From contig JADJAG010000005.1 in the NCBI GenBank assembly GCA_016704325.1, positions 135,860 to 199,859 of the forward strand: DNA of 64,000 bases, written 5' to 3'. Each line of letters begins with the position of its first letter. Positions within the stretch are counted from its first letter, which is position 1. This DNA is from Chitinophagaceae bacterium (GTDB lineage: Bacteria > Bacteroidota > Bacteroidia > Chitinophagales > UBA10324). Positions 2,108 to 15,979 of the stretch are shown one piece after another. A program made the translations under genes and the position numbers. The notes beneath the pieces were generated by a model that saw only the letters and a program-made list of their open reading frames with translations, ran no database searches and was not told where the DNA came from.

Positions 2108-2737
2108 ATGACTTCCCTCGATAAGGTAAGTGGTCTTCTTCTTTCACTGGCTAATTATCAGCAATTTGACGGTGAGTTCTTTCGTTTAAGACTCGATGAG
2201 AATCATATATTTTTAAAGGAAAATCAAATTAAGTTTGATGAATGTCACTTTTATTTCAGTACACTGAAAAACCTCAATTGGATAGCGATAACTAGCTTGC
2301 AAACAACAAATGCAGGTACGTATGCTGCCGAGTTTTCATTAACCTTTGAAGGAATTAAACAAGCACTATTGCTTCAGTCAGAAGGAATCACTTCAAACAA
2401 TTGCTTTGTGGCTATGTCTTTTCGAAATGAAACAAAGGCGATTAGACAGGCTATCAAAAACGCAATTTTTAGCACAGGCTTCAATGCAATACTTATTGAT
2501 GAATTGCATCACGATAGTGTTCAGCCGATTAATGATGCAATTATTACAGCTTTGAAAAAATCCCGATTTTGCTTTGCAGACTTTAACAATCAAGCAAGCG
2601 GCGTTTACTACGAGAGCGGCTTTGTAGCGGGTCAGAGTAAAAAGGTAATTTATTGTTGTCAGCAAGATCATTTTCAAAATTCACATTTTGATACAAATAA
2701 CTGTAGTCCAAATAAATTTATTTATGGCTATTCCTGA
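2108..2737 (+). CDS. Two-domain protein: an unknown N-terminal domain of about 95 aa plus a C-terminal nucleoside 2-deoxyribosyltransferase-like / TIR-like Rossmannoid domain.
   Basis: CFVAMSF...ILIDEL...INDAIITALKKSRFCFADFNNQASGVYYESGFVAGQSKKVIY...HFDT matches the FVxMxF ... D..(N)..VyYE.G.A...gK.vI pattern of the NDT/TIR-like clade, and the Glu of YYESG is retained. The gene is AT-rich: my hand count of two 60-nt lines gave 33-37% GC. Confidence 0.6.
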   Translation: MTSLDKVSGLLLSLANYQQFDGEFFRLRLDENHIFLKENQIKFDECHFYFSTLKNLNWIAITSLQTTNAGTYAAEFSLTFEGIKQALLLQSEGITSNNCFVAMSFRNETKAIRQAIKNAIFSTGFNAILIDELHHDSVQPINDAIITALKKSRFCFADFNNQASGVYYESGFVAGQSKKVIYCCQQDHFQNSHFDTNNCSPNKFIYGYS

Positions 2738-2792: not shown

Positions 2793-3638
2793 ATGGAGGA
2801 AACTGTAAAAAGAAAAAGCCGGGCGCATGAGGAACCGCGATTCAGGCAATACCTAGGAACGGTAATAAGTGGTTTTGTTTTGTTTGGCACAGTAGCCTTT
2901 ATTGTGATGGGTTTCTGGATCATCAATATTGTAGTAACGCACAATCCACCCGGTGAAGATCCAACTGATAAACTGATTAAAGTCCTTCAGACACTATTTA
3001 CAGCAATCCTGCCGCTTTTCGGAACCTGGATCGGAACGGTGTTGGCTTTTTATTATACAAAGGAGAACCTGCAGGCAGCCAATGAGAGCATCAGGGACCT
3101 GGTAGATAAGGTGACTTCTGCCAAGAAATTGGAATCCATAAAAGCAAAGGATGTAATGATACCGGTAGAGAAGCTGATCTATCTGGAGTTTAATTCAACC
3201 GATGACCCTGCGAAGTTCAGGCTGAAAGAAGATTTTCACGATTATGTGGTGAGAGAAAAAATTCAACGGGTAATTCTGTTGAATGAAAACAAGAATGCCC
3301 GTTATGTACTGCACAGCAGCCTTATTCAGCGATTTATTACGCTACAATATTTTAAGCGGGTAGCGAATCAACCTGCAGAGCATGGTGCAGAAAATAGCGA
3401 ACCGCTGACCGCTGCTACTTTTGCAGATATGCTGCAATCGGAAGATGAGCAGATCAAAGGTGTGATCAGGGAAGGTATTAATTTCATCAGTTTGGAAGCA
3501 ACCCTTGCCGTAGCGAAGTCGTTGATGAATAACAAATATTGCCAGGACGTCTTTATTACAAAAGGCGGACAGTCCAATGAGCCGGTCCTGGGTTGGATCA
3601 CCAATAAAACCATTGAGGATAACAGCATTGTTGATTGA
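2793..3638 (+). CDS. Membrane protein with two N-terminal TM helices followed by a CBS-domain pair.
   Basis: The hydrophobic segments are YLGTVISGFVLFGTVAFIVMGFWIINIVV and LQTLFTAILPLFGTWIGTVLAFYY. CBS1 is SIKAKDVMIPVEKLIYLE...VILLNENKNARYVLHSSLI and CBS2 is TFADML...INFISLEATLAVAKSLM...VFITKGGQSNEPVLGWITNKTI. Confidence 0.7.
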   Translation: MEETVKRKSRAHEEPRFRQYLGTVISGFVLFGTVAFIVMGFWIINIVVTHNPPGEDPTDKLIKVLQTLFTAILPLFGTWIGTVLAFYYTKENLQAANESIRDLVDKVTSAKKLESIKAKDVMIPVEKLIYLEFNSTDDPAKFRLKEDFHDYVVREKIQRVILLNENKNARYVLHSSLIQRFITLQYFKRVANQPAEHGAENSEPLTAATFADMLQSEDEQIKGVIREGINFISLEATLAVAKSLMNNKYCQDVFITKGGQSNEPVLGWITNKTIEDNSIVD

Positions 3639-3682
3639 TATTTCTCCTATAGTGCCTTCTGTTTTTTTATCAACTTTCGAAC

Positions 3683-5745
3683 ATGCATCCATTTGTAATA
3701 TATGTTACCTGGCATCCCTTGTTTGAAGATGGGAAACACTATGCAGAACGAATTTATCAAACCTTTAACAGAAATTTTGCTGATCCATTCAGCCGGAGCA
3801 TAGGCATTCCCGTCTTTTACAGATCCATCAGCAATACCGGAAGTGAAGAGGAAGTACCTGCTGCTATAGATCCCGATGGCGCTGAACACACCGCAATTGT
3901 ATTACTGGTAGATGATTGCATGGTCATTCACCGGCAACAATGGGCAGACTACCTGCAGCAACTGGTAGCTTTAGATAAGGGAAATCATCAGGTGAGAATC
4001 TATCCTGTCGCCATCTCGAAGACTGCATTCAGTGTGAGTGATGTGGTGAATGATAAGAATTTTGTAAGGGTATTTGAGAAAGAGACGACGGAACAGAAAG
4101 CGCGGTTTTTAACGGTAACCCTTGCTCACGAATTTTGCAGGCTGATACTTGGTTTTCAGAGAGCAACGGATCCTAAACAAGATTCATTACCAAGACTTAA
4201 GCTTTTTCTCAGCCATTCAAAAGCAGATGGAGTGGAGATCACCAAACTGTTGAAATACTGGATACAGGAATTCACCGGATTGGAGACCTTTTTTGATGCA
4301 ACCGATATTTCACCGGGAGAATTGTTTGCCGAAGCGATTGACAAAGGAGTGGGCAATTCAAGTTTGCTGGTGGTTCAGACCGATATCTTCAGTAGCCGTG
4401 AATGGTGCCGTGCAGAAGTGCTGGAAGCCAAGAGACACAATCGCCCGGTGGTGGTAGTGAATGCCCTTGATAAAGGAGAGTCCAGGAGTTTTCCATATAT
4501 GTGTAATGTTCCGGTTATACGTTGGAAAAATGAGAGTGCTGCTGATTTTTCATCATTGATTGAACGTATCATTTTAGCGGTGTTGCTCGAAACGCTGCGG
4601 CATGCTTACCAGGGCAAACTGATTGAACATCAGTTTAAGACGTTTCTGAAACCCGGAACAGATTACAAGTTGCTAAAGAATGCACCGGAATTACTCGACC
4701 TGGTAAATACAGAAGAAGCATCAGTCAATTTGAATCGACACTTCATTTATCCTGATCCTCCATTGGGTAATGGCGAGCTGCAGATCCTCAGGCGCTGCAT
4801 GCCGGGTGCGCAATTCAGCACACCCATTCAGCTGATTCGCGATGAAGCAAAAAAAAGTGCCTCACGGGATAAGTTTACAATTGGGCTCTCTATTTCGGAA
4901 TCTGAAAAAATGGAAGTGCGCGGATTGAGTACCGATCACCTGAAAGATGTAATGGTGGAAGCTGCACGTTACCTGTTGGCTTCAGGCTATTCTCTTGCAT
5001 ATGGTGGCGATATACATTACAGTGCGGGCTTCAATTTTGCCATGTTGCTGAAGGAGATGGTGATGACTTACCGTGCCGATTATAAAGGAGAAAACGCCAG
5101 GGTTACCAACTATGTGGCCTATCCAATCTTTCATACGATCAGCACTGCTTTGGAAGCGGAATTAATTGACGTGGTGCGCTTTATCCGTGTTCCCCGCCTG
5201 TTGACCTGGCCATAAATAAGAAGGACGACTGGCAACGGATTTTGAAAGCGGAAACGGTGCACGACCAATACCTTTTTGCCCGGTGCCTTACAGAAATGCG
5301 TTTGATTATGAATGAGTCTATTGATGCGCGAATAATCCTTGGCGGAAAGCAGACCGGGTATAAAGGTCGCTACCCCGGATTGATGGAAGAAGTATTGATA
5401 GCGATGACTTCTCATAAGCCGGTATTTATCATTGGTGCATTCGGAGGTTGTGCGGCGTCTGTTATTCAGGCTCTGCTTGGAGAGACACCGGAAACTTTAA
5501 CAAAAGAGTATCAATACAAAGTAGCACAATACAAAACGCTTGCAAACTATTATCAACAACAGGATGCTGGTGCGGTAAATGAAATCAACTACGAGAAGGT
5601 GGTTGGATTCTTCAACAGTGCAGGCATAGAAGGACTAAACAACGGATTGTCGCCTGATGAAAATAAAATGCTGTTTACCAGTGTTGATGCCGGGCTTGTG
5701 ATCTCTTTGCTTTTGAAAGGGCTGAGCAGTTGTGTAAACAAATGA
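3683..5745 (+). CDS. TIR-like / TIR / SLOG three-domain protein. As assembled it is split by a 1-nt frameshift at the C-run 5192-5195 (ORFs 3683..5215 and 5242..5745).
   Basis: Residues 1-100 are TIR-like (PFVIYVTWHP...GIPVFYRS...IVLLVDD). The central domain is a canonical TIR (KLFLSHSKADG...ETFFDATDISPGE...SSLLVVQTDIFSSREWCRAEVLEA; the WCRAE codons are 4403-4417). The C-terminal domain is SLOG-like (FTIGLSISESE...LAYGGD... in the first ORF and ARIILGGKQTGYKGRYPGLMEE...PVFIIGAFGGCAA in the second). The second frame is open from 5170, and adding one C gives ...RFIRVPPPVDLAINKKDDWQRILKAE... Confidence 0.75.
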
Positions 5746-5870
5746 CAGGCTTTTAGGTGTTCGGGAAGCAGCTTGCATAATAAATGTGCTGCCTGGCATT
5801 TTTGCCACCGCTCAACAAGCTTGTACTCCTGCTAATTTTGTATTTTCATCACAGCAATTAAAATAGATCT

Positions 5871-6921
5871 ATGCAGGAGCAGTCTTCAGGACGGACAAAC
5901 CGGGAACCAACCACTGCAAAACGCGGGCATTTTTTTGATTTTTTCTCAGGGATAGATCCTGAGATCAGGAATGAATTACCACCTGCCGATCATTTTCCAT
6001 ATATCCTTATCGGGTTCAGTAACCTTTTTGCCTCTGTATTGATAGGTATGTCGGCGTACCTGTTTTTTGAATCCATCCTGCATACGTATTATCTCGCCAT
6101 TTTTTTTGCCTGGCTCATTTTCAGCCTTGTCGTAATTGTGTTGCGGGCAATTACTACTTCCTTTCTTTCTAAAACCTACCAGTCAGTCAGGTATGTTTAC
6201 CTTATTTGCATTCCTGTTATCGCCATTGTATGCAGCCAGCCGGTTGGTATGTTTATTTCAGAAGTGAACCTTGTGCGGGAGAAACGAACCACCTTGATCA
6301 GTGATACCGTTCAGTGGACCAATGATACAGCTCAATTCAGACTAACAGCTGAAGCGTACCAGGATTCCGTTAAGTTGTTTGAAATGAGTGGCGTAAATGC
6401 AAGGATGAAAGCTGATTCGCTGTATAAAGTTATTGTGTCAAAGAAAAAGGATTCCATTGCCATTCAAAAAAGTATTCGCGCACTTCAGAACAACCTGCAG
6501 ATTGAGGAAAAAAAAGGCAAGAGCCCTGAGCAGACCAATAACAATAATTATGCAGCAGCAGTGGAAGAGACGAAGAAACTAAAACAACAACTTGATCAGC
6601 AAACAGGGGCATTGGAGTTGCTGAAAAGGGATTTGAGTAATGTGAGGATCTCCTACCAGATACTCAGCAACCCGATCAGTGAATTGCCGTATGTAAAGGA
6701 GTTGTACATCAATAAATACCAGGATTCAATTGCTTCTCAGAAGAAGCAGGCTGAAATGTTGGTATCGCGGATCAAAAGAGAATCGAGCACAGATTGCTGC
6801 GCTCGAAGGAGTAACCACCTGCACTACCTGTACCTTCAGTGAAAAGTTTGCTTATTACCGGCAACATGTATTTTCCAGTTGGCTACTTCTTTTCGTTAGC
6901 ATCACGTTTTTTTACTGTTAA
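5871..6921 (+). CDS. DUF4407-like membrane coiled-coil protein. As assembled it is broken by frameshifts at the A-run 6773-6776 and the T7 run 6907-6913, and its C-terminal limit is unresolved.
   Basis: The N-terminus FFDFFSGIDPEIRNELPPADHFPYILIGFSNLFASVLIGMSAYLF, the further TM segments, the long coiled coil, and then ...AQIAALEG...WLLLFVSITFF / LILPPYIISRSRNDLYHQLL follow the DUF4407 layout as I remember it. The third frame, open from 6900, has no stop before the ATG at 7065. Confidence 0.55.
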
Positions 6922-7064
6922 TTCTTTTCTTAATCCTTCCTCCGTATATTATTAGCAGGAGCCGGAATGACCTTTACCATCAGTTACTTGCTACGAAAGA
7001 GAACAGTGAAACCATTTCCATACGCAGAAAGGAGATAGAAGAAAAGTTTAAGATTGAAACGGAA

Positions 7065-8845
7065 ATGAAAACCGTAAAAGACCTGCTGCAAAAATTTGAC
7101 GGCGGAGGCAATGAGACCACACAGGACATCACCAACAATCTAACTTCAACCAATGATCCCAAATCGTATGAAGCTTTGGGTGATGTTCAGGTGAAGCTGG
7201 GTGACTATTTCAGAGCCGTGGAATTCTATGACCGCGCTATTTTCCTCGATCCGGAAGCTTCAGCGCCATGGAGAAAGAAAGCAGATGTTTATTCCGTTAT
7301 GGGAAGATATGCCGAAGAGCAACAGGCAAAGGCACGATATACGGAATTGTTGAGTGTGGAACGCTTTCGCAATAATCTCACACGTGCCACCAGGTTGTAT
7401 GCTGTGGAAGTAGCGAACCTGCCTTTCTATGGTTCTTTTTCCTGGCACTTGCGCGGCAGCATGAATATTATGCTGGGAAAAAACGGTTATGGAAAAAGTC
7501 ACCTCATGTCGATCATGCTGGCCTTATTGCAGGAAGAAGAGAAGTTATTGCGTGACCTGACCATGATGGACAAAGCCTCTCCAACTCCTGCTCCCTATTT
7601 TAAAATCTCTTTTCAGTCGGATCATGAGCGCGATGTGCCCTTGATGGAATCGTTGCAGCAACAGGTGGAGGAAAATCAAAATTGCGATCAGCGTTTCTTG
7701 CACGGCAGCGTGCGGCGAGGACTCCTGCTGATCAGACTGTAACAGAAATTGCACCACCTGTTACAACGGAATGGGATGGTGAATTGATCAGGCTGCAAAA
7801 GCAACTAGAACTGTTGGAAGGAATAGCTTACTTTGATAAGCTGGGTATTCAGTCTTCCTATGGTAAAATCCCTGTACTGGCAATTCCTGATTCGAGGTTC
7901 ATAAATAAATCAGCGGAGTCCACTTCCATTAGAAATGATGAACGATCTAAGAAAATACTGGAAAACGGAGCATACCAGTTTATGCTGCAGGTACCGTATG
8001 AAGATGTGATTCAGAATTTATTGAATACCATCTCTACCATCTACCTTGATGAAAGGAATTTTGAGGATGAAATATTTCAGCTCATCCGCCGTGTTTTCAA
8101 ACGCCTTACCGGAAGTGAATTTGTGTGGGATACTATTCAGCGTACAGAAGATAATTCCGGTTTTATTATCAGGGTGAAGACAGAAGGCGCAGATACTTCG
8201 CTTCCGATACAGAAAGCCTCGCAGGGCACATTATCCGTTGTCGCGATGATTGGAACGATGTATCATTATATGTCGCTTCGTTATCCTGCTGTTTCGCGCA
8301 AACAGGTGACCCGGCAACCGGCTATTATTTTTATTGATGAGATTGATGCGCACCTGCATCCGAGCTGGCAGCAAAAGATTATCGGAATTTTGCGTAATGA
8401 GTTTCCGAATGTACAATTCATTATTTCAGCGCACAGCCCGCTGGTGATAGCCGGATGCAAAGAAGAAGAAGTGTGTGTGCTGCGAAAGCGCGACAAAGGA
8501 TTTACGATGGAGATCATTGAATCTAACCTGATTGGTAAACCCATCGCCGATATCTTCAGGATGATTTTTGAAGTGGAAGAAAAGAATGAAATGTATTTGC
8601 AGCTGGCAGCGCTGATGCCCTTTAAAAATTCCATTAAATCGAAAGCGCAGGCTCTCCGTGAAAAAACGACACGCGATGAAAAGGAAGAGCAACAACTGCA
8701 GGAGTTAGAGCAGCAGATTGAGAATTTTGTTTACCTCGAACAGTTTGATACCATCCGTTCTACCTTTGAAGAACTGGAAGATTTGAAGAATGCGAATGAG
8801 ACGTTGAAGATGGAGGTGGAGCGGTTGCGGGCGAGGTTGGGGTGA
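7065..8845 (+). CDS. TPR-containing ABC-type (AAA_15/AAA_21-like) ATPase with a C-terminal coiled coil. As assembled it is split by a frameshift at the A-run 7678-7681 (ORFs 7065..7742 and 7682..8845).
   Basis: A TPR-like segment is YEALGDVQVKLGDYFRAVEFYDRAIFLDPEA. The Walker A motif GKNGYGKS is at 7475-7498. Walker B and the D-loop are AIIFIDEIDAHLHPSWQ, followed by FIISAHSPLVI. Adding one A restores ...QQQVEENQKLRSAFLARQRAA... Confidence 0.7.
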
Positions 8846-9157
8846 ATGGTTAAATTGTTGAATTGTTGAATTGTTAAATGGTTAAATGGTTAAATGGTTA
8901 AATGGTTAAATGGTTAAATGGTTAAATGGTTGAATGGTTGAATGCTTAAATTGTTAAATGGTTGCAGCGAAGCTGATGCGATGGGGAGGTTGATGAAAAT
9001 TTTAAATTTGAAAATATTGAATATTGAATATTGGATATTGGATATTGAGTGTTGAATATTCAATATTCAATATTCAACACTCAATATTCAACACTCAATA
9101 CTCAATACTAACGACTTCCGACTAATTACTTCCGACTAACTACTAACTACTAACTAC
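8845..9157. repeat. Nested low-complexity block: 15 units of the 8-mer AATGGTTA, the hairpin CAGC-GAA-GCTG, a 7-mer array ATTGAAT mirrored by ATTCAAT (a palindrome with arms of about 45 bp), then CGACTTCCGACTAA x2 and ACTAACT x3 abutting the next ATG.
   Basis: I counted the units directly. The 8-mer units run 8845-8964, the palindrome is centred near 9057/9058, and the ACTAACT run ends at 9157. The block has the same architecture as the 195-202 bp MITE at 28749 and 56538, but greatly expanded. Confidence 0.85.
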
Positions 9158-10149
9158 ATGGATACCAAAGTAGAATCTCTCGTAAAAATGTTTGGTGAAA
9201 ATGCCCTGACGGACATTGAAACCAACATTGAGCCGTTGATAAAAAAGTATTTTAATGCAGAGTGGGATGCTGTGTATCAACAGGAGTTTTTTACAAAGCA
9301 TTATGAACTGATTCGCGGTTACCGGAAGAAGCTGGATGAGCTGACGGGCAATGCGTTGAATACAAAGGAAAAGATTATTGCCGCATTGAGTTTCTGCTGG
9401 AAGGAAGCTAATTTCAATAAATCGGAGGCCACGATATTTTATTCAAAAATGGAATTATTTCACCGGCTGGTGAATGAAATGTTGAAGAACGAATGGACGC
9501 CGAAACAGCAGGAACACTTCAATACGGTTGCCGTGATATTCCGTGATTATCACAATTATTTTCTTTCCTATACCAACCATCTTTCGCAGGCCATCAACCA
9601 GGCATACAAGATTATCTATGAAGCGATTTTGAATAAGGAAGATTATTCCGGCGAAGATTTCAGCAAGCGCAACCTGCTGGCCAAAGCCTTTCACCGTTTC
9701 CTTCACCTGAAAAATATCCGCAAGGGTTTCTTCGACCTCGACTCCATCCGGCTGGCGCAGGGCATTGACGATAAAGTGACTGCCAATGCCAGCAAATCCA
9801 TAGCCTTTATTCAATTGATTTCCATGGCATCTTTTGAATACAATGAACCCAACTGGAGTTATATTGAATACCTGACGTATACAAAAGCAAGAGACGTTTT
9901 CAAACAGCAAAACGACCACCGTTCCGGTTTCTCTCCTTTACTTTTTATGTTTTCACAGAAAAGAATGCATTACCGCCTGAATCGCTGATCCCCGACGATT
10001 ATAAAGTTTGGTCTGCCTCCACGAATGAGAAGCTGCACTGCGATCTTACGGCTATCAATACCTACGAAGATTTTGTGAAGGAAATTGAAAGACTGATCAA
10101 TGCCATTATCAATTATAAATCTGAAATGGTGAATAGTATTCCGGATTGA
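9158..10149 (+). CDS. Helical N-terminal domain plus a TIR-like domain. As assembled it is frameshifted near the T-run 9950-9953, and the track ORF 9158..9988 continues in another frame to a TGA at 10147-10149.
   Basis: NYFLSYTNHL...KGFFDLDSIRLAQGIDDKVTANASKSIAFIQLISMASFEYNEPNWSYIEYL follows the TIR pattern F.SY...FfD...i..G..i...i..S...i.liS......W...E (the WSYIE codons are 9854-9868). The alternative frame reads FTEKNALPPESLIPDDYKVWSASTNEKLHCDLTAINTYEDFVKEIERLINAIINYKSEMVNSIPD*. The gene is AT-rich: my hand count of two lines gave about 33-35% GC. Confidence 0.55.
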
Positions 10150-10193
10150 AAGGAGGCAGCATGGGGGACTATTTTTATGTGCGCAGCCTCTTT

Positions 10194-10336
10194 AGTCATC
10201 GGATGACTATAATTCAATGTATTGATTGAGCAGTTTTACTTTAAGTCATCCGATGACTTTCGGCCGGTTGTAGTCATCGGATGACTTGTATTCAGTAGGT
10301 TGATTTTCCAAATTTGTTATAAGTCATCCGATAACT
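10194..10336. repeat. Four copies of the 15-bp palindrome AGTCATC[G/C]GATGACT, arranged as two tandem units of about 78 bp.
   Basis: The copies are at 10194-10208 (centre G), 10244-10258 (centre C), 10272-10286 (centre G) and 10322-10336 (degenerate, centre C). The spacings are 50, 28 and 50 bp. The inner segments are related (attcaatgtattgatt versus attcagtaggttgatt). Confidence 0.85.
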
Positions 10337-10376
10337 ATCATTGAGACAAGATGTAAGTAAAATTTGGAATAGGAAA

Positions 10377-11087
10377 CTAAATAAACTCCTCCACAGAAAT
10401 CTTCAATACCTCAAACGCTTTTTTAGCAGCCAATTTCTCCGCGTTTTTTTTATTCGTGTCTTCGCCTTCTCCGTATTCTTCTCCATCAATTATTGCCGCA
10501 ACTTTATACAAAGCACGATGGCGGTGACGGGAGTGGTTTTTACGGCGAAAGTGAGGAGCGTCCTGATTTCTGCGCCCATTCCAGCAGCTTGCTTTTATAA
10601 TTGAATTCGCTGATCTCCAACTCCCCGATATCGAGAAATGGTTTCACAATTTTTTTGATGATAAAATTGTGCGCGCTCTTATATCCTTTGTCGAGATAGA
10701 CTGCTCCTACCAGGGCTTCCAGCGCATTGCCGGTAAGTGACTTTTTATTGATCAAGGGATCTGCTGAACTATAGGAAAGATATAAGTCAATGCCCATCTT
10801 ATGAGAAACGGTCTTCAATTGGCTCCTGCTTACCATTTTTGAGCGGATATCAGTCAGGTAGCCTTCATCTTTGTAGGGGAATTTTTAAATAGGTAATCAG
10901 CTATTACGGCACCGAGTACGGCATCGCCTAAAAATTCGAGGCGTTCATTGCTTTCGTATATTTCTTCGGCAGAAGAACTGTGGCGAAAGGCCATTTCATA
11001 CAATAACAGGTTGGAAGGCGAAATGCCGGTGAGTTCCTTTACCTGCGAGTAGAACGCTTTCTTTCCTGAAAATAATCGTCGAATCAA
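10377..11087 (-). CDS. rnc: Ribonuclease III. As assembled it has at least two frameshifts.
   Basis: The signature [20 protein letters not shown] is present. Adding one base at the T5 run 10882-10886 restores [25 protein letters not shown]. The C-terminal dsRBD (...[45 protein letters not shown]) lies in a third frame that ends at the stop 10379-10377. Confidence 0.85.
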
Positions 11088-11116
11088 ACGAACGGCTTGT
11101 GTGGTATCCTAAAATG

Positions 11117-11149
11117 AAAAAACCCCGGCAGAAATAAATCCTGCCAGGG
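11117..11149 (-). terminator. Rho-independent terminator between fabF and rnc.
   Basis: The minus strand reads CCCTGGCAG-gatttattt-CTGCCGGGG followed by TTTTTT. The stem is 9 bp with one G-U pair. Confidence 0.6.
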
Positions 11150-11169
11150 TAAAAGGTAGAAAAAAATTA

Positions 11170-12426
<1,257 letters not shown>

Positions 12427-12438
12427 GTAAAATTCGGA

Positions 12439-12678
12439 TTAAGACTTTGCGTACTGCTCGATGTAAGCGATGGCCTGGCCAACTGAAGTGATAGTTTCAG
12501 CCTGCTCGTCAGGGATGGAGATATTAAACTCTTTCTCGAACTCCATGATCAACTCAACCGTGTCGAGAGAATCGGCACCAAGATCATTGGTAAAGGTTGC
12601 TTCAGGCGTAACCTCGCTTTCATCAACGCCTAATTTGTCAATGATGATCTTCTTAACTCTTGCTGCGATGTCTGACAT
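12439..12678 (-). CDS. acpP: Acyl carrier protein.
   Basis: The 79-aa product carries [16 protein letters not shown] with the phosphopantetheine Ser, and the gene lies immediately upstream of fabF. Confidence 0.95.
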
Positions 12679-12840
12679 AAAAAATTATTGGTTTATGTGG
12701 ATTAATTTTTGGCAAAGTAAGGGATTTCAGTTTTTATACGCAATCTTTTGATCAATTATTTTCAGACACTTGTTTTGAGTCATTTTACTGTGAATACACT
12801 GAAGTAACAGGTATGCCGTATTGGTCAATGTCTCTACAAT

Positions 12841-13329
12841 TTGTTTAAGTCACTCCAATCGTGTAGGTTTGAAAGGCATCAGCCAACAAAAAGGGGAATA
12901 GCGAGTGTCGAAGAAAAAACAATTGCGCTCGAAGAGCAATTTACCGGACTTTTATGGGCCATTGTTGCACCGCTGAAGGAGTATCAGTTGGGATGGCATA
13001 TAAATAAAGTGCTGGGATTTGAACTGAAGAAGGCTGATGATATGGAACTGATACATAAGAAGCGCCATAAGACATCAGTTTACAGTTGTTACAAATACGA
13101 GAGTGAACTGGATAAATGGCTGGTGTACGTAGTTTCGAATAAAAATTCAGGCGAGTTCCTGGTACCTGAAGTGAGGCAGGCGGATTATTTTCTGATTATC
13201 CGTGGTGAAATTTCTGTGCAAAGGGAAGAGGAGCTGTTTGTTAAACTAAGGAGCATACCGGTTATTCAACTAGTAGTGAAGATGAACTTTGATCATTTGA
13301 AATCGAAGGCCAACCTGATGATTGATTAG
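12841..13329 (+). CDS. IPExxxVDY family protein. The start is uncertain: the track uses TTG and there is no in-frame ATG near the expected N-terminus.
   Basis: The motif LVPEVRQADYFLIIRG is present and the gene is divergent from acpP, which is the usual Bacteroidota context. Confidence 0.65.
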   Translation: MFKSLQSCRFERHQPTKRGIASVEEKTIALEEQFTGLLWAIVAPLKEYQLGWHINKVLGFELKKADDMELIHKKRHKTSVYSCYKYESELDKWLVYVVSNKNSGEFLVPEVRQADYFLIIRGEISVQREEELFVKLRSIPVIQLVVKMNFDHLKSKANLMID

Positions 13330-13362
13330 CTTATCAATAACTGCGAATTATTTATTGAATCT

Positions 13363-13541
13363 GTAACTACTCAGTAGATGAACATTTAAGAAATAGAACA
13401 CGGATAACACTGATCAAACGGATTCTTACGGATTTTTATCTGATCATTTGATAAGTGTGCTTTGAATGATCACTGTTATAATCTGTGGTTATCAGTTAAA
13501 TCTGTGTCATCCGTGTGCCATTTTTCTTTTCTGCTTAGTAG
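13363..13541. repeat. Dispersed intergenic repeat, family B (CACGGAT-word element), copy 1.
   Basis: Nearly the full length aligns to the reverse complement of 28944-29120. A shared stretch is ...ctactcagtagatgaa.atttaagaaatagaacacggataacactgatca.acggattc.tacggattt... tctgtgtcatccgtgtgcc. Confidence 0.8.
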
Positions 13542-13576
13542 ATCCTTGAATCTTAATACTGTTAAAACAAAAAAAT

Positions 13577-13816
13577 ATGTGGAAAGAACATGATAACAAA
13601 CTTCAAAGAACATTCCTGTTCAGCGATTTTGTGATGGCCTTTGGCTTTATGACAAAAGTTGCCCTGGTAGCGGAGAAAATGAACCATCATCCAAAATGGA
13701 CCAATGCCTGGAACAAGGTAGAAATAACACTTTCCACGCATGATGCCGGCGATGTGATAACAGAGAAGGATCGAGCGCTCGCCGATGCCATAGACAAAAT
13801 ATACGTTGATGAATGA
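13577..13816 (+). CDS. 4a-hydroxytetrahydrobiopterin (pterin-4-alpha-carbinolamine) dehydratase.
   Basis: The 79-aa product contains [41 protein letters not shown], the PCD signature. Confidence 0.85.
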
Positions 13817-13874
13817 TTCTTTTGGCTAACTTTGAATTTAGCCGTTACTTGTGTAAATCGATCAAACTAATCTG

Positions 13875-15979
13875 TTGAAAGTTAAAATATACGCTGTACT
13901 ATTCCTGCTAGTCCTGGCTGCACTTTCAGCAAATGCACAATTGCCTGAACAGGATTGCAGCGGCGCGATACCGGTTTGTCAGAATGTGTATGTGCAACCG
14001 AACTCGTATGCAGGTGAAGCAACACAGGAATTGACTTTCGGTAATTCTTCCTGCCTTTCGCAGGGAGAAGAAAATTCCGTATGGTATATCTGGACGGTGA
14101 ACGTATCCGGAACGCTTGAATTTCAGATAACACCCATCAATAACAATGATGACTATGACTGGGCTGTGTATGATTTAACCAATGCCACCTGTGCTGATAT
14201 TATTACCGGGGTTGCACCGGAAGTACGCTGTAACTACTCCGCTATTCCCGGAGCAACCGGATTGTCAAATCCATATGTGCTTACTTCCGTAGGAGCAGGC
14301 GGGCCCAATCAATGTCAGCCGATGAATGTAGTGGTTGGCGAAACGTATGTGTTGGTCATCAACAATCACGACGGGCTTATCGGAGGTTATACCTTATCGT
14401 TTAGCGGAACGGCCGTTATATTCGACAATATTCCACCTGCACCTGTTTCCATAGATCCATTTCCTTGTACACCTCCTTCCGTTTTGCACATCACTGTTTC
14501 GGAACAGGTACGTTGCAATACGATTGCTGCTAATGGGAGTGATTTTTATGTGACAGGCCCTTCTGCAGTGGGCATTATCGGGGCATCTTCAACAGGCTGT
14601 GTTGGCGGAACATTTACCAATAATTTTGATGTGTTGCTGTCGGGACCCATTACTGTCAATGGCTCGTATGTCCTGAATTTCAAACAAGGTACTGATGGCA
14701 ACGTGATACTCGACAATTGCGGCAATGAATTGTCGGATACGAATAAGGTGCCCTTCACGGTAGCGATAGCTGATGCAGAGTTTAGTTATGAAATCATAAA
14801 AACCTGTACCGGCGATTCGCTTGTCTTCACCGACCTTTCTGTAGGTGATACTACCATTACCTGGTCGTGGGATTTTGGAGATGGTACTACATCAACAGAT
14901 ATTAATCCCGGCCATATGTTTCCGGGTACGGGTACTTTTGATATCATACTTGCCATTACGGATAGTGGCGGCTGTTTCAACCAGGATACTGTTACGATCA
15001 ATACTTATTTAGAGCCTCCGGTAGCAGGATTTTCTGTATCACCACCACCTTATTGCACCAATATTCCCATTTCTTTTTTCAACTCATCAACCGGGCAGGG
15101 GCTGGTATATGAATGGATTTTTGGAACTGCCACTACCAATGAGTTTGAACCGGTTTTCACATTCACCGCTTCCGGATTGTATACCGTTTACCTGGTGGTG
15201 ACGGACAGTATAGGATGTAAGGATACCGTTTCCGCCAACTTAACAATTAATCCCGGTGTAATTGCGGCTTTTAATTTTGAACCGGATGTATTATGCACCG
15301 GCGATATGATAACATTTAACAATGTTTCTGCCGGTGATTTTAGCGGCGTCCACTGGGATTTCGGAAATGGTACCACAGATACCAGTTCCACTGAAGTAAC
15401 TCTTGTTTACAACAGCAGCGGTACGTACGAGGTAACCATAATCATTCAGCATGATGTATGTCTGCCGGATACTTTTTCCGAGACGGTTACGGTATATGAC
15501 TATCCTTTTGTTACGTTGGGAGCCGATACCAGCATTTGCATCGGAGAATCAATTGTGCTGGATTCGGACAACCCAAATTACCAGCACGACTGGTCAACCG
15601 GTGAACAAACACAGGCTATTGTAGTGAGCCTGGTTCCTCAAACAGTAGTCGTATATGTAAGTAATAATGGTTGTATCGGTAAGGATACCATTTTTGTAGA
15701 AAATGCCTGTCCGTTTTTGTGCCCACAGCGTTTACTCCAAACAATGACGGTATCAATGATGTTTATAAAATTATTACCGATGGAACGAATGAATTTGATT
15801 TAAAGATCTTCAACCGTTGGGGGCAATTGGTTTATATTTCTTCCGATCCGGATGGCTATTGGGACGGTAATTTCGAAGGGTTACCGGAAGAGATGGGAGC
15901 GTTTATTTATTCGCTCAGCATCCGGTTCAGCAATGGCATATCAAGGGTTATGAATGGAAACATTACACTGATCAGGTAA
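13875..15979 (+). CDS. PKD-repeat cell-surface protein with a T9SS type B (gliding motility-associated C-terminal) sorting domain. As assembled it is frameshifted at the T5 run 15714-15718.
   Basis: The signal peptide is MKVKIYAVLFLLVLAALSANAQ. PKD cores WDFGDGTTS and WDFGNGTTD are present. Adding one T gives ENACPFFVPTAFTPNNDGINDVYKI...FNRWGQLVY...GNITLIR. Confidence 0.85.

Follow-up and report, generated by a model that had tools for sequence, protein, structure and literature searches.

A divergent, locally orphan TIR–SLOG protein from a Chitinophagaceae contig as a candidate Thoeris effector remotely related to ThsJ

A 64-kb stretch of contig JADJAG010000005.1 from a Chitinophagaceae bacterium was analysed in the present study (the whole stretch is hereafter called the window), and we focused on a gene in it, the TIR–SLOG gene, whose product joins a TIR domain to a C-terminal SLOG domain. 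Our results suggest, with a probability of roughly 0.6, that the gene encodes one intact protein of 687 residues, that this protein is a divergent TIR and SLOG effector of the Thoeris class and a remote homologue of ThsJ, and that it acts as a ligand-gated TIR NADase in abortive infection. Fusions of TIR and SLOG were reportedly predicted computationally in 2015. An earlier note on this DNA, made from the sequence alone, had stated that no functional study of such a fusion was known; this no longer holds, as a Thoeris effector with TIR and SLOG domains was shown to be phage-defensive in December 2025 (bioRxiv 10.64898/2025.12.03.692087).

An intact gene behind a frame break

In the window as assembled, the gene is divided between two open reading frames (ORFs) in different frames (Table 1). 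Insertion of one C into the run CCCC at 5192–5195 fused both ORFs into a continuous 687-residue protein, a length in keeping with the ~690 residues that the earlier note had proposed. A search of 5.8 billion proteins returned an uninterrupted sequence, P0001, that was 100% identical to the corrected protein over 687/687 residues. Its source is an independent short-read contig (L001; Logan run SRR28060555), which matched window positions 3321–7246 with 99.8% identity, the differences being three substitutions and four single-base insertions or deletions (indels). All four indels were located in or beside homopolymer runs, one of them being at 5192–5195, where L001 has C5 and the window C4. Homopolymer-linked single-base indels were common across window positions 3321–11087 (for example at 5192–5195, 5828, 6774 and 6906), at four per 3.9 kb relative to L001. 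The RNase III gene (rnc, 10380–11087) was broken into three frame segments, the ~990-residue ATPase gene downstream of the TIR–SLOG gene occupied two frames relative to an intact homologue, and the following gene for a 330-residue protein was likewise divided between two frames.

Since an intact and identical protein with C5 exists in an independent contig, and since many other homopolymer indels occur in the window, so that even RNase III is split, the frame break at 5192–5195 is judged from these comparisons to be an assembly artefact and not pseudogenization, with the signature of uncorrected long-read homopolymer errors. The read error in the C-run suspected in the earlier note was thus borne out, and split genes elsewhere in the window should also be treated as likely artefacts rather than pseudogenes, given that the assembly is rich in such indels. 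The alternative is a genuine pseudogene, in which a real frameshift leaves only the 510-residue product without half of the SLOG domain. Although the assembled frame is indeed broken, with a stop codon at 5213–5215, a contig of 99.8% identity carries C5 and encodes the intact protein, four of the differences between the two sequences are homopolymer-linked single-base indels, the same kind of break is seen in RNase III and two further neighbours, and every invariant SLOG residue is retained downstream of the shift. Thus a pseudogene is extremely improbable.

Domain organization

On the basis of sequence and modelling, the corrected protein is predicted to consist of four parts, an N-terminal flavodoxin-like domain, a TIR domain, a conserved linker and a SLOG domain of cluster2 (Table 1). 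Conservation was measured on an alignment of 100 full-length homologues (30–89% identity). The motifs listed in the earlier note were all found in the corrected protein, with QWADYL at residues 86–91, WCRAE at residues 241–245, LAYGGD at residues 438–443, ILGG...G..PG..EE at residues 552–570 and GAFGG at residues 585–589. The same note had called for a model of the full protein, and AlphaFold2, with the family alignment as input, gave a compact and confident one, with a predicted local distance difference test (pLDDT) value of 89.9 and a predicted template modelling (pTM) score of 0.90. When this model was compared with the PDB using Foldseek, the best matches were the TIR domains of SARM1, MyD88, SPARTA, AbTir and SpbK, and ThsA (6LHX) appeared lower in the list (E value 6.5e-3). 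A sequence-profile search of the PDB matched only bacterial and plant TIRs, the bacterial ones including PdTIR, AbTir, TcpB and Cat1, and found no solved homologue for the N-terminal or the SLOG domain.

Table 1 Features of the TIR–SLOG gene, its product and the adjacent genes in window coordinates
Feature	Residues	Position	Strand	Description
TIR–SLOG gene		3683–5745	+	687 residues after frame correction; stop codon ends at 5745
ORF 1 (510 residues)		3683–5215	+	As-assembled frame; stop at 5213–5215
ORF 2 (167 residues)		5242–5745	+	Frame differs from ORF 1
C4 homopolymer, one C missing		5192–5195	+	Apparent frameshift site; CCCCC in L001
N-terminal domain	1–168	3683–4186	+	Flavodoxin-like fold, nearest to bacterial TIRs
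TIR domain	~170–285	4190–4537	+	Pfam TIR_2 match at residues 175–259
WCRAE (WxxxE motif)	241–245	4403–4417	+	E245, putative catalytic Glu; W241, aromatic position linked to ADP-ribose cyclization in bacterial TIRs
Linker	286–396	4538–4870	+	Long helix, then small β–α units
SLOG cluster2 domain	397–664 (corrected protein)	4871–5673	+	PF18163 LD_cluster2
Predicted membrane protein (281 residues)		2793–3638	+	Ends 44 nt before the TIR–SLOG start
ATPase (~990 residues, frame-corrected)		5871–8845	+	DUF4407 N-terminal membrane region, coiled coil, further predicted hydrophobic (transmembrane) stretch, TPR repeats, AAA_15/AAA_21
330-residue protein		9158–~10150	+	No family match

The central domain matched Pfam TIR_2 (PF13676) with 36.1 bits against a gathering cut-off of 28, whereas PADLOC and NCBIfam gave weak matches only, all on the TIR region. 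Among the 100 homologues, Phe175, Ser177 and His178 (the LFLSHxK motif) and Trp241, Cys242 and Glu245 are invariant, and Trp241 and Glu245 align in register with Trp204 and Glu208 of AbTir. In AbTir, Glu208 is catalytic and Trp204 is the aromatic position tied to cyclization of ADP-ribose (ADPR) (bioRxiv 10.1101/2022.05.07.491051). Taken together, the Pfam score, the invariant residues and the AbTir alignment support the proposal of the earlier note that the central TIR retains a catalytic Glu, and the domain is a putative NAD-cleaving TIR of the enzymatic class.

The C-terminal half was assigned to SLOG in the earlier note, and this assignment is now strongly supported, since Pfam LD_cluster2 (PF18163) matched with 284.1 bits against a cut-off of 25.3 (E value 1.5e-84), covering profile positions 4–264 of 264 and running across the corrected frameshift. 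The invariant residues of this domain are Gly441, Gly442, Arg540, Gly555, Pro565, Gly566, Glu569, Glu570 and Gly589; the glycine-rich loops and a motif of the PG..E type are conserved and are predicted to form a nucleotide pocket. A text search of a literature library found no relevant mention of PF18163, LD_cluster2 or SLOG cluster2. Between the two domains, the family has two motifs of its own, ExRSFPYxGN (residues 266–275, at the end of the TIR domain and just upstream of the linker) and YPDPPLGxEE in the linker (its YPDPP part at residues 356–360), and Arg268, Asn275, Pro335, Glu336, Tyr356, Pro357, Pro359, Glu365 and Thr380 are invariant in this block.

The N-terminal domain (residues 1–168) had no Pfam match. 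Modelled alone, it formed a β–α–β sandwich (pLDDT 87.6) for which the best Foldseek match was the TcpB TIR (E value 1.9e-3, probability 0.99, TM-score 0.45–0.54), followed by BtTir, MAL, PdTIR and AbTir, all weak; the TM-scores were ~0.45–0.55, and WrbA, flavodoxins and small GTPases (Rab) were interleaved among the TIRs. Aligned with the TIR of the same family using hhalign, the domain gave a collinear alignment pairing Trp87 with Trp241, which was not significant (E value 0.025 against 0.14 for a reversed control) as profile evidence for a TIR duplication. The invariant residues are Ile42, Pro43, Trp87, Pro108 and Arg153. As none of them is acidic, the domain is probably non-catalytic. Of the earlier proposal of a TIR-like and probably non-catalytic domain, the TIR-likeness is weak by both Foldseek and hhalign; the combined description is reasonable, if weakly supported.

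Relationship to ThsJ of type IX Thoeris

Thoeris types V–XI were defined in December 2025, type IX consisting of ThsB and an effector with 'TIR and SLOG', ThsJ (Yirmiya et al., bioRxiv 10.64898/2025.12.03.692087, Table S2). In the same study, the type IX system of Bacillus cereus VD021 protected Bacillus subtilis against phage, and that of P. macerans 8244 gave no protection in B. subtilis. We recovered both ThsJ genes through the published ThsB sequences by reading the adjacent gene. Since the VD021 ThsB had no match in any locus of the window family, the link to type IX was made through the effector itself. When the 100-sequence family was aligned with the two ThsJ sequences using hhalign, the probability was 99.5% and the E value 1e-22 over 460 columns with 19% identity, and the alignment started within the second half of the N-terminal domain and continued across the TIR and the linker into the SLOG domain. 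Pairwise BLAST of ThsJ and the window protein was much weaker, with 31% identity over 99 residues in SLOG (E value 4e-8) and 23% over 146 residues in TIR.

ThsJ has the same order of parts, with an extra N-terminal domain, a TIR containing WxxxE, a linker and a C-terminal SLOG containing MR...GGK...PG..EE...G(A/S)xGG, and a gene for a ThsB-type TIR is adjacent to it, as in many members of the window family. The two differ in several respects. ThsJ has 623 residues rather than 687, with TIR_2 at residues 147–235, and its C-terminal SLOG is matched best by LD_cluster3 (E value 4.4e-19), with LD_cluster2 (4.3e-14) only partly covered and STALD at 3.5e-7, whereas the window family covers the whole of LD_cluster2. 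The invariant motifs ExRSFPYxGN and YPDPP are particular to the window family, the second having a partly conserved counterpart in ThsJ, YEPHPQLG, and, unlike type IX systems, the window copy is without ThsB in 64 kb. Because the profile alignment is significant and the architecture is the same, the window protein is, as judged by sequence, a remote homologue of ThsJ in a distinct sister family. This result also lends support to the analogy with ThsA drawn in the earlier note.

Distribution and gene neighbourhood of the family

Genome contigs scanned with the protein sequence alone yielded no relative. An alignment-based pattern scan over one genome per GTDB species detected the family in 373 of 185,579 species genomes, from more than ten phyla (including Bacteroidota, Bacillota, Cyanobacteria, Verrucomicrobiota, Planctomycetota, Myxococcota, Acidobacteriota, Pseudomonadota and Chloroflexota) and one Promethearchaeota metagenome-assembled genome (MAG). 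Its distribution is patchy and island-like. We clustered the flanking ORFs of 80 loci. The commonest neighbour was a protein of 160–200 residues matching Pfam ThsB_TIR (PF08937) with its W..E motif intact. By phmmer, such a ThsB-type TIR was present within 3 kb in 32 of the 80 loci, mostly less than 100 bp away; by a hidden Markov model (HMM) run on six-frame translations, 54 loci whose flanks reached 3 kb or more to either side included 25 with a ThsB-like TIR gene inside that distance. In Bacillus toyonensis, the operon order is TIR_2, ThsB_TIR, TIR–SLOG and TIR. The B. cereus homologue P0022 could not be placed on any contig.

Several other arrangements were observed. In the Promethearchaeota MAG (L016; JAUWGH010000006.1, 269 kb), a ThsB_TIR-like gene is located 4 bp upstream of a full-length member of 37% identity, a pair that reflects either horizontal transfer into archaea or contamination of the MAG. 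In five loci from Saprospiraceae and other Bacteroidota (L041, L042, L049, L051 and L074), a trypsin-like peptidase of ~340 residues directly follows the TIR–SLOG gene (Trypsin_2 in L042, E value 2.3e-17), and a 170-residue protein without a family (cluster c4) recurs near TIR–SLOG in some of these peptidase loci and in others. In L018, L022, L027 and L040, TIR–SLOG is found beside ORFs of 1600–1860 residues and a recurrent protein of ~520 residues (cluster c15).

In a distant clade whose members are 31–34% identical to the window protein, ~20 loci place TIR–SLOG in a tight cassette on one strand together with ThsB_TIR, Nmad2, MazG with MazG_C, a second ThsB_TIR and a 5-hmdU-DNA-kinase-like helical-domain protein (for example L044, L056, L065 at 9950–15935, L068, L073, L075 and L077). 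Some of these cassettes add genes that, by reading of the sequences, are thymidylate-synthase-like, deoxynucleoside monophosphate kinase-like or radical-SAM-like. The clade ties a Thoeris-type effector to a toolkit for nucleotide or base modification, a combination of which we found no description.

This cassette bears on a different view of the SLOG domain, in which it is an enzyme and not a sensor. The domain would then be a LOG-like N-glycosidase or nucleotide-processing domain and the protein a module of two enzymes acting on nucleotides, which might make, trim or destroy a nucleotide, perhaps a modified phage nucleotide, instead of being a ligand-gated NADase. LOG enzymes have a catalytic Arg and a PGGxGTxxE motif, which the invariant Arg540 and Pro565, Gly566, Glu569 and Glu570 resemble, and about 20 of the 80 related loci embed the gene in the nucleotide-modification cassette (Nmad2, MazG/MazG_C and 5-hmdU-DNA-kinase-like). 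Catalytic roles for some SLOG domains have been proposed by the Aravind group (PMC9503650). However, the same motifs bind ligand in the non-catalytic SLOG of ThsA, where Gly399 and Glu403 contact 3′ cyclic ADP-ribose (3′cADPR), the cassette is absent from the window and its close relatives, and the validated homologue ThsJ was classed as a signal-responsive effector. A catalytic SLOG is thus clearly unlikely.

The window locus and its close relatives

The clade of the window protein belongs to Chitinophagales (58–100% identity), and its gene occupies a slot of variable content that is flanked by an OsmC/rhodanese cluster and by rnc–fabF–acpP. In one relative (L082), TIR–SLOG is alone in the slot, between housekeeping genes. 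In three others (L083, L084 and L085), as in the window, genes for a DUF4407–TPR–ABC ATPase of ~1000 residues and for a 330-residue protein come next on the same strand. The ABC-type ATPase of the window (~990 residues) was PtuA-like in PADLOC (E value 2.6e-37). The pair is kept after TIR–SLOG in L083–L085 and missing from L082, and the two genes probably form a Septu-like defence module of their own, with an unusual architecture. Upstream, the 281-residue protein of the window is predicted to have two transmembrane helices at its N terminus, followed by a soluble part that is CBS-like by eye, and it had no family match in searches of domain libraries. A counterpart of 282 residues (78% identity) is encoded directly upstream of TIR–SLOG in L084 and L085, and is absent in L082 and L083, which makes the protein an uncertain component of the system. 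A scan for σ70 promoters and terminators, with a model ill-suited to Bacteroidota, found sites no more numerous than in shuffled sequence.

Still further upstream, a 209-residue ORF (2108–2737, forward strand) has the C-terminal segment CFVAMSF...GVYYESGFVAGQSKKVIY and weak matches to nucleoside 2-deoxyribosyltransferase (E value 0.015) and, among the PADLOC models, to a TIR effector (E value 0.027). It may be a nucleotide-targeting domain of the DrHyd/TIR class, and was not found beside the TIR–SLOG gene in the relatives.

The recurrence of these neighbours raises another possibility, that TIR–SLOG is a signal generator whose ADPR-derived messenger activates the downstream ATPase and its 330-residue partner, or the upstream membrane protein. 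In the window and in L083–L085, the ATPase and 330-residue genes are indeed downstream of TIR–SLOG and co-directional with it, and the 281/282-residue membrane protein is directly upstream in the window, L084 and L085. However, L082 has TIR–SLOG without any such neighbour, the membrane protein is missing in L083, the ATPase, 330-residue and membrane genes recur in none of the 80 more distant loci, and the ATPase resembles PtuA of Septu, a separate system. A role as signal generator for these neighbours is therefore highly unlikely.

Proposed function

The domain make-up, the invariant motifs of the TIR and SLOG, the homology to ThsJ, the island-like distribution and the many ThsB-type neighbours in the family are observed; the mechanism described next is inferred. 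We propose that the protein is a ligand-gated TIR NADase. During phage infection, the SLOG domain would bind a signal derived from ADP-ribose, or a related nucleotide, that appears in the infected cell. Binding would alter the oligomeric state of the protein, as for ThsA, TIR-SAVED, TIR-STING and Cat1, and would bring the TIR domains together head-to-tail to form a composite active site, upon which NAD+ would be consumed and the infected cell arrested (abortive infection). The N-terminal pseudo-TIR would most likely keep the TIR inactive or offer a surface for assembly. The window copy is an orphan, with no ThsB partner within 64 kb, a point that the earlier note did not make; because no ThsB gene is nearby, its signal would be supplied by another system or by a TIR, either one encoded elsewhere or the one in the protein itself.

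A number of observations count against this proposal. The ThsA-type SLOG model STALD matched with only 17.3 bits against a cut-off of 24 (E value 0.0034), which is below the threshold and marginal, and the SLOG domain is without a sequence-detectable solved homologue in the PDB. The identity to ThsJ is only 19% by hhalign. When the six frames of the 64-kb window were searched with a ThsB-like HMM and the HMM of the family TIR, only the TIR–SLOG gene itself matched, and the four closest relatives (L082–L085) have no ThsB-like gene; with no ThsB-like or other TIR ORF in the window, the source of a Thoeris signal is therefore missing locally. Furthermore, although type IX ThsB makes 3′cADPR upon infection, 3′cADPR triggered no toxicity of the effector (bioRxiv 10.64898/2025.12.03.692087). 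The 3′cADPR made by ThsB thus does not switch the effector on, and ligand gating is a proposal even for ThsJ, the nearest studied relative.

The orphan state could also indicate that the protein works on its own. Infection would be sensed by the protein itself, with the N-terminal pseudo-TIR as one candidate sensor; its TIR would make a cyclic ADPR isomer and its SLOG would bind this product, giving a self-amplifying switch to full depletion of NAD+ without ThsB. Consistent with this, there is no TIR partner in the window or its closest relatives, about half of the family loci are without a ThsB-type partner, the gene of L082 has only housekeeping genes beside it, the whole family keeps the extra N-terminal domain, and Trp241, which is invariant and precedes the putative catalytic Glu by four residues, occupies the position tied to cyclic products in characterized TIRs. 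On the other hand, purely hydrolytic TIRs can also have a Trp there, the other half of the family adjoins ThsB-type genes, the homologue ThsJ works in an operon containing ThsB, and the genome may encode a ThsB beyond the 64 kb. We regard such autonomy as rather unlikely for the protein. The broader suggestion that orphan members form a self-contained, one-protein Thoeris, with the pseudo-TIR as sensor or autoinhibitor, the WxxxE TIR as the source of a cyclic ADPR-type messenger, the SLOG as its reader and positive feedback to NAD+ collapse, is speculative and somewhat more doubtful still.

With respect to the ligand of the proposed gated NADase, the clade with Nmad2, MazG and 5-hmdU kinase raises the equally speculative idea that cluster2 SLOGs might actually recognize a modified nucleotide instead of 3′cADPR. 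If so, this would also explain why 3′cADPR fails to activate type IX Thoeris. Since the invariant residues of the TIR, linker and SLOG are sharply defined and the model is confident, they are good targets for mutagenesis, and the family is well suited to resolving how a SLOG gates a TIR NADase and which ligand serves the type IX class.

Comparison with known systems

ThsA of type I Thoeris (SIR2–SLOG, PDB 6LHX) has in common with the window protein the fusion of an NAD-consuming enzyme domain to a C-terminal SLOG sensor. The residues of ThsA that contact 3′cADPR are Gly289/Ser290, Arg371, Lys388, Gly399 and Glu403, and the glycine-rich loop and the G...E motif have plausible counterparts in the window protein. 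However, the latter has a TIR instead of SIR2, a SLOG of cluster2 instead of STALD and an extra N-terminal domain, and the PDB profile search found no sequence-level match to any ThsA structure. An identity as ThsA was rejected, as there was no SIR2 match, STALD scored 17.3 bits against a cut-off of 24 and the PADLOC ThsA model gave an E value of 0.022.

TIR-SAVED (7QQK), TIR-STING and Cat1 (CARF–TIR, 9MUD) likewise fuse a sensor to a TIR NADase of the AbTir/PdTIR type, and TIR-SAVED and Cat1 were among the sequence matches of the window TIR region. Their sensors, SAVED, STING and CARF, are in contrast unrelated to SLOG and respond to cyclic oligonucleotides (in CBASS and type III CRISPR). Type III Thoeris, reportedly described by van den Berg et al. 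in 2024, is said to comprise several TIR proteins and a SLOG effector; it shares with the present case the combination of TIR proteins and a SLOG-domain effector, and differs in that its SLOG is described in a review as DprA/SMF-like. Membership of type III was rejected, as the sole NCBIfam type III match was ThcB4, which scored 27.4 bits where the cut-off is 220 and was confined to the TIR region. The BcTir/Tpr system was also set aside, being separate from the TIR–SLOG family.

Compared with these systems, the window protein is not a new category. It is a divergent and locally orphan member of the known TIR and SLOG effectors of Thoeris, and the window adds no new principle to them. The family to which it belongs is a larger and much better conserved sister of ThsJ, with natural variants both with and without ThsB.

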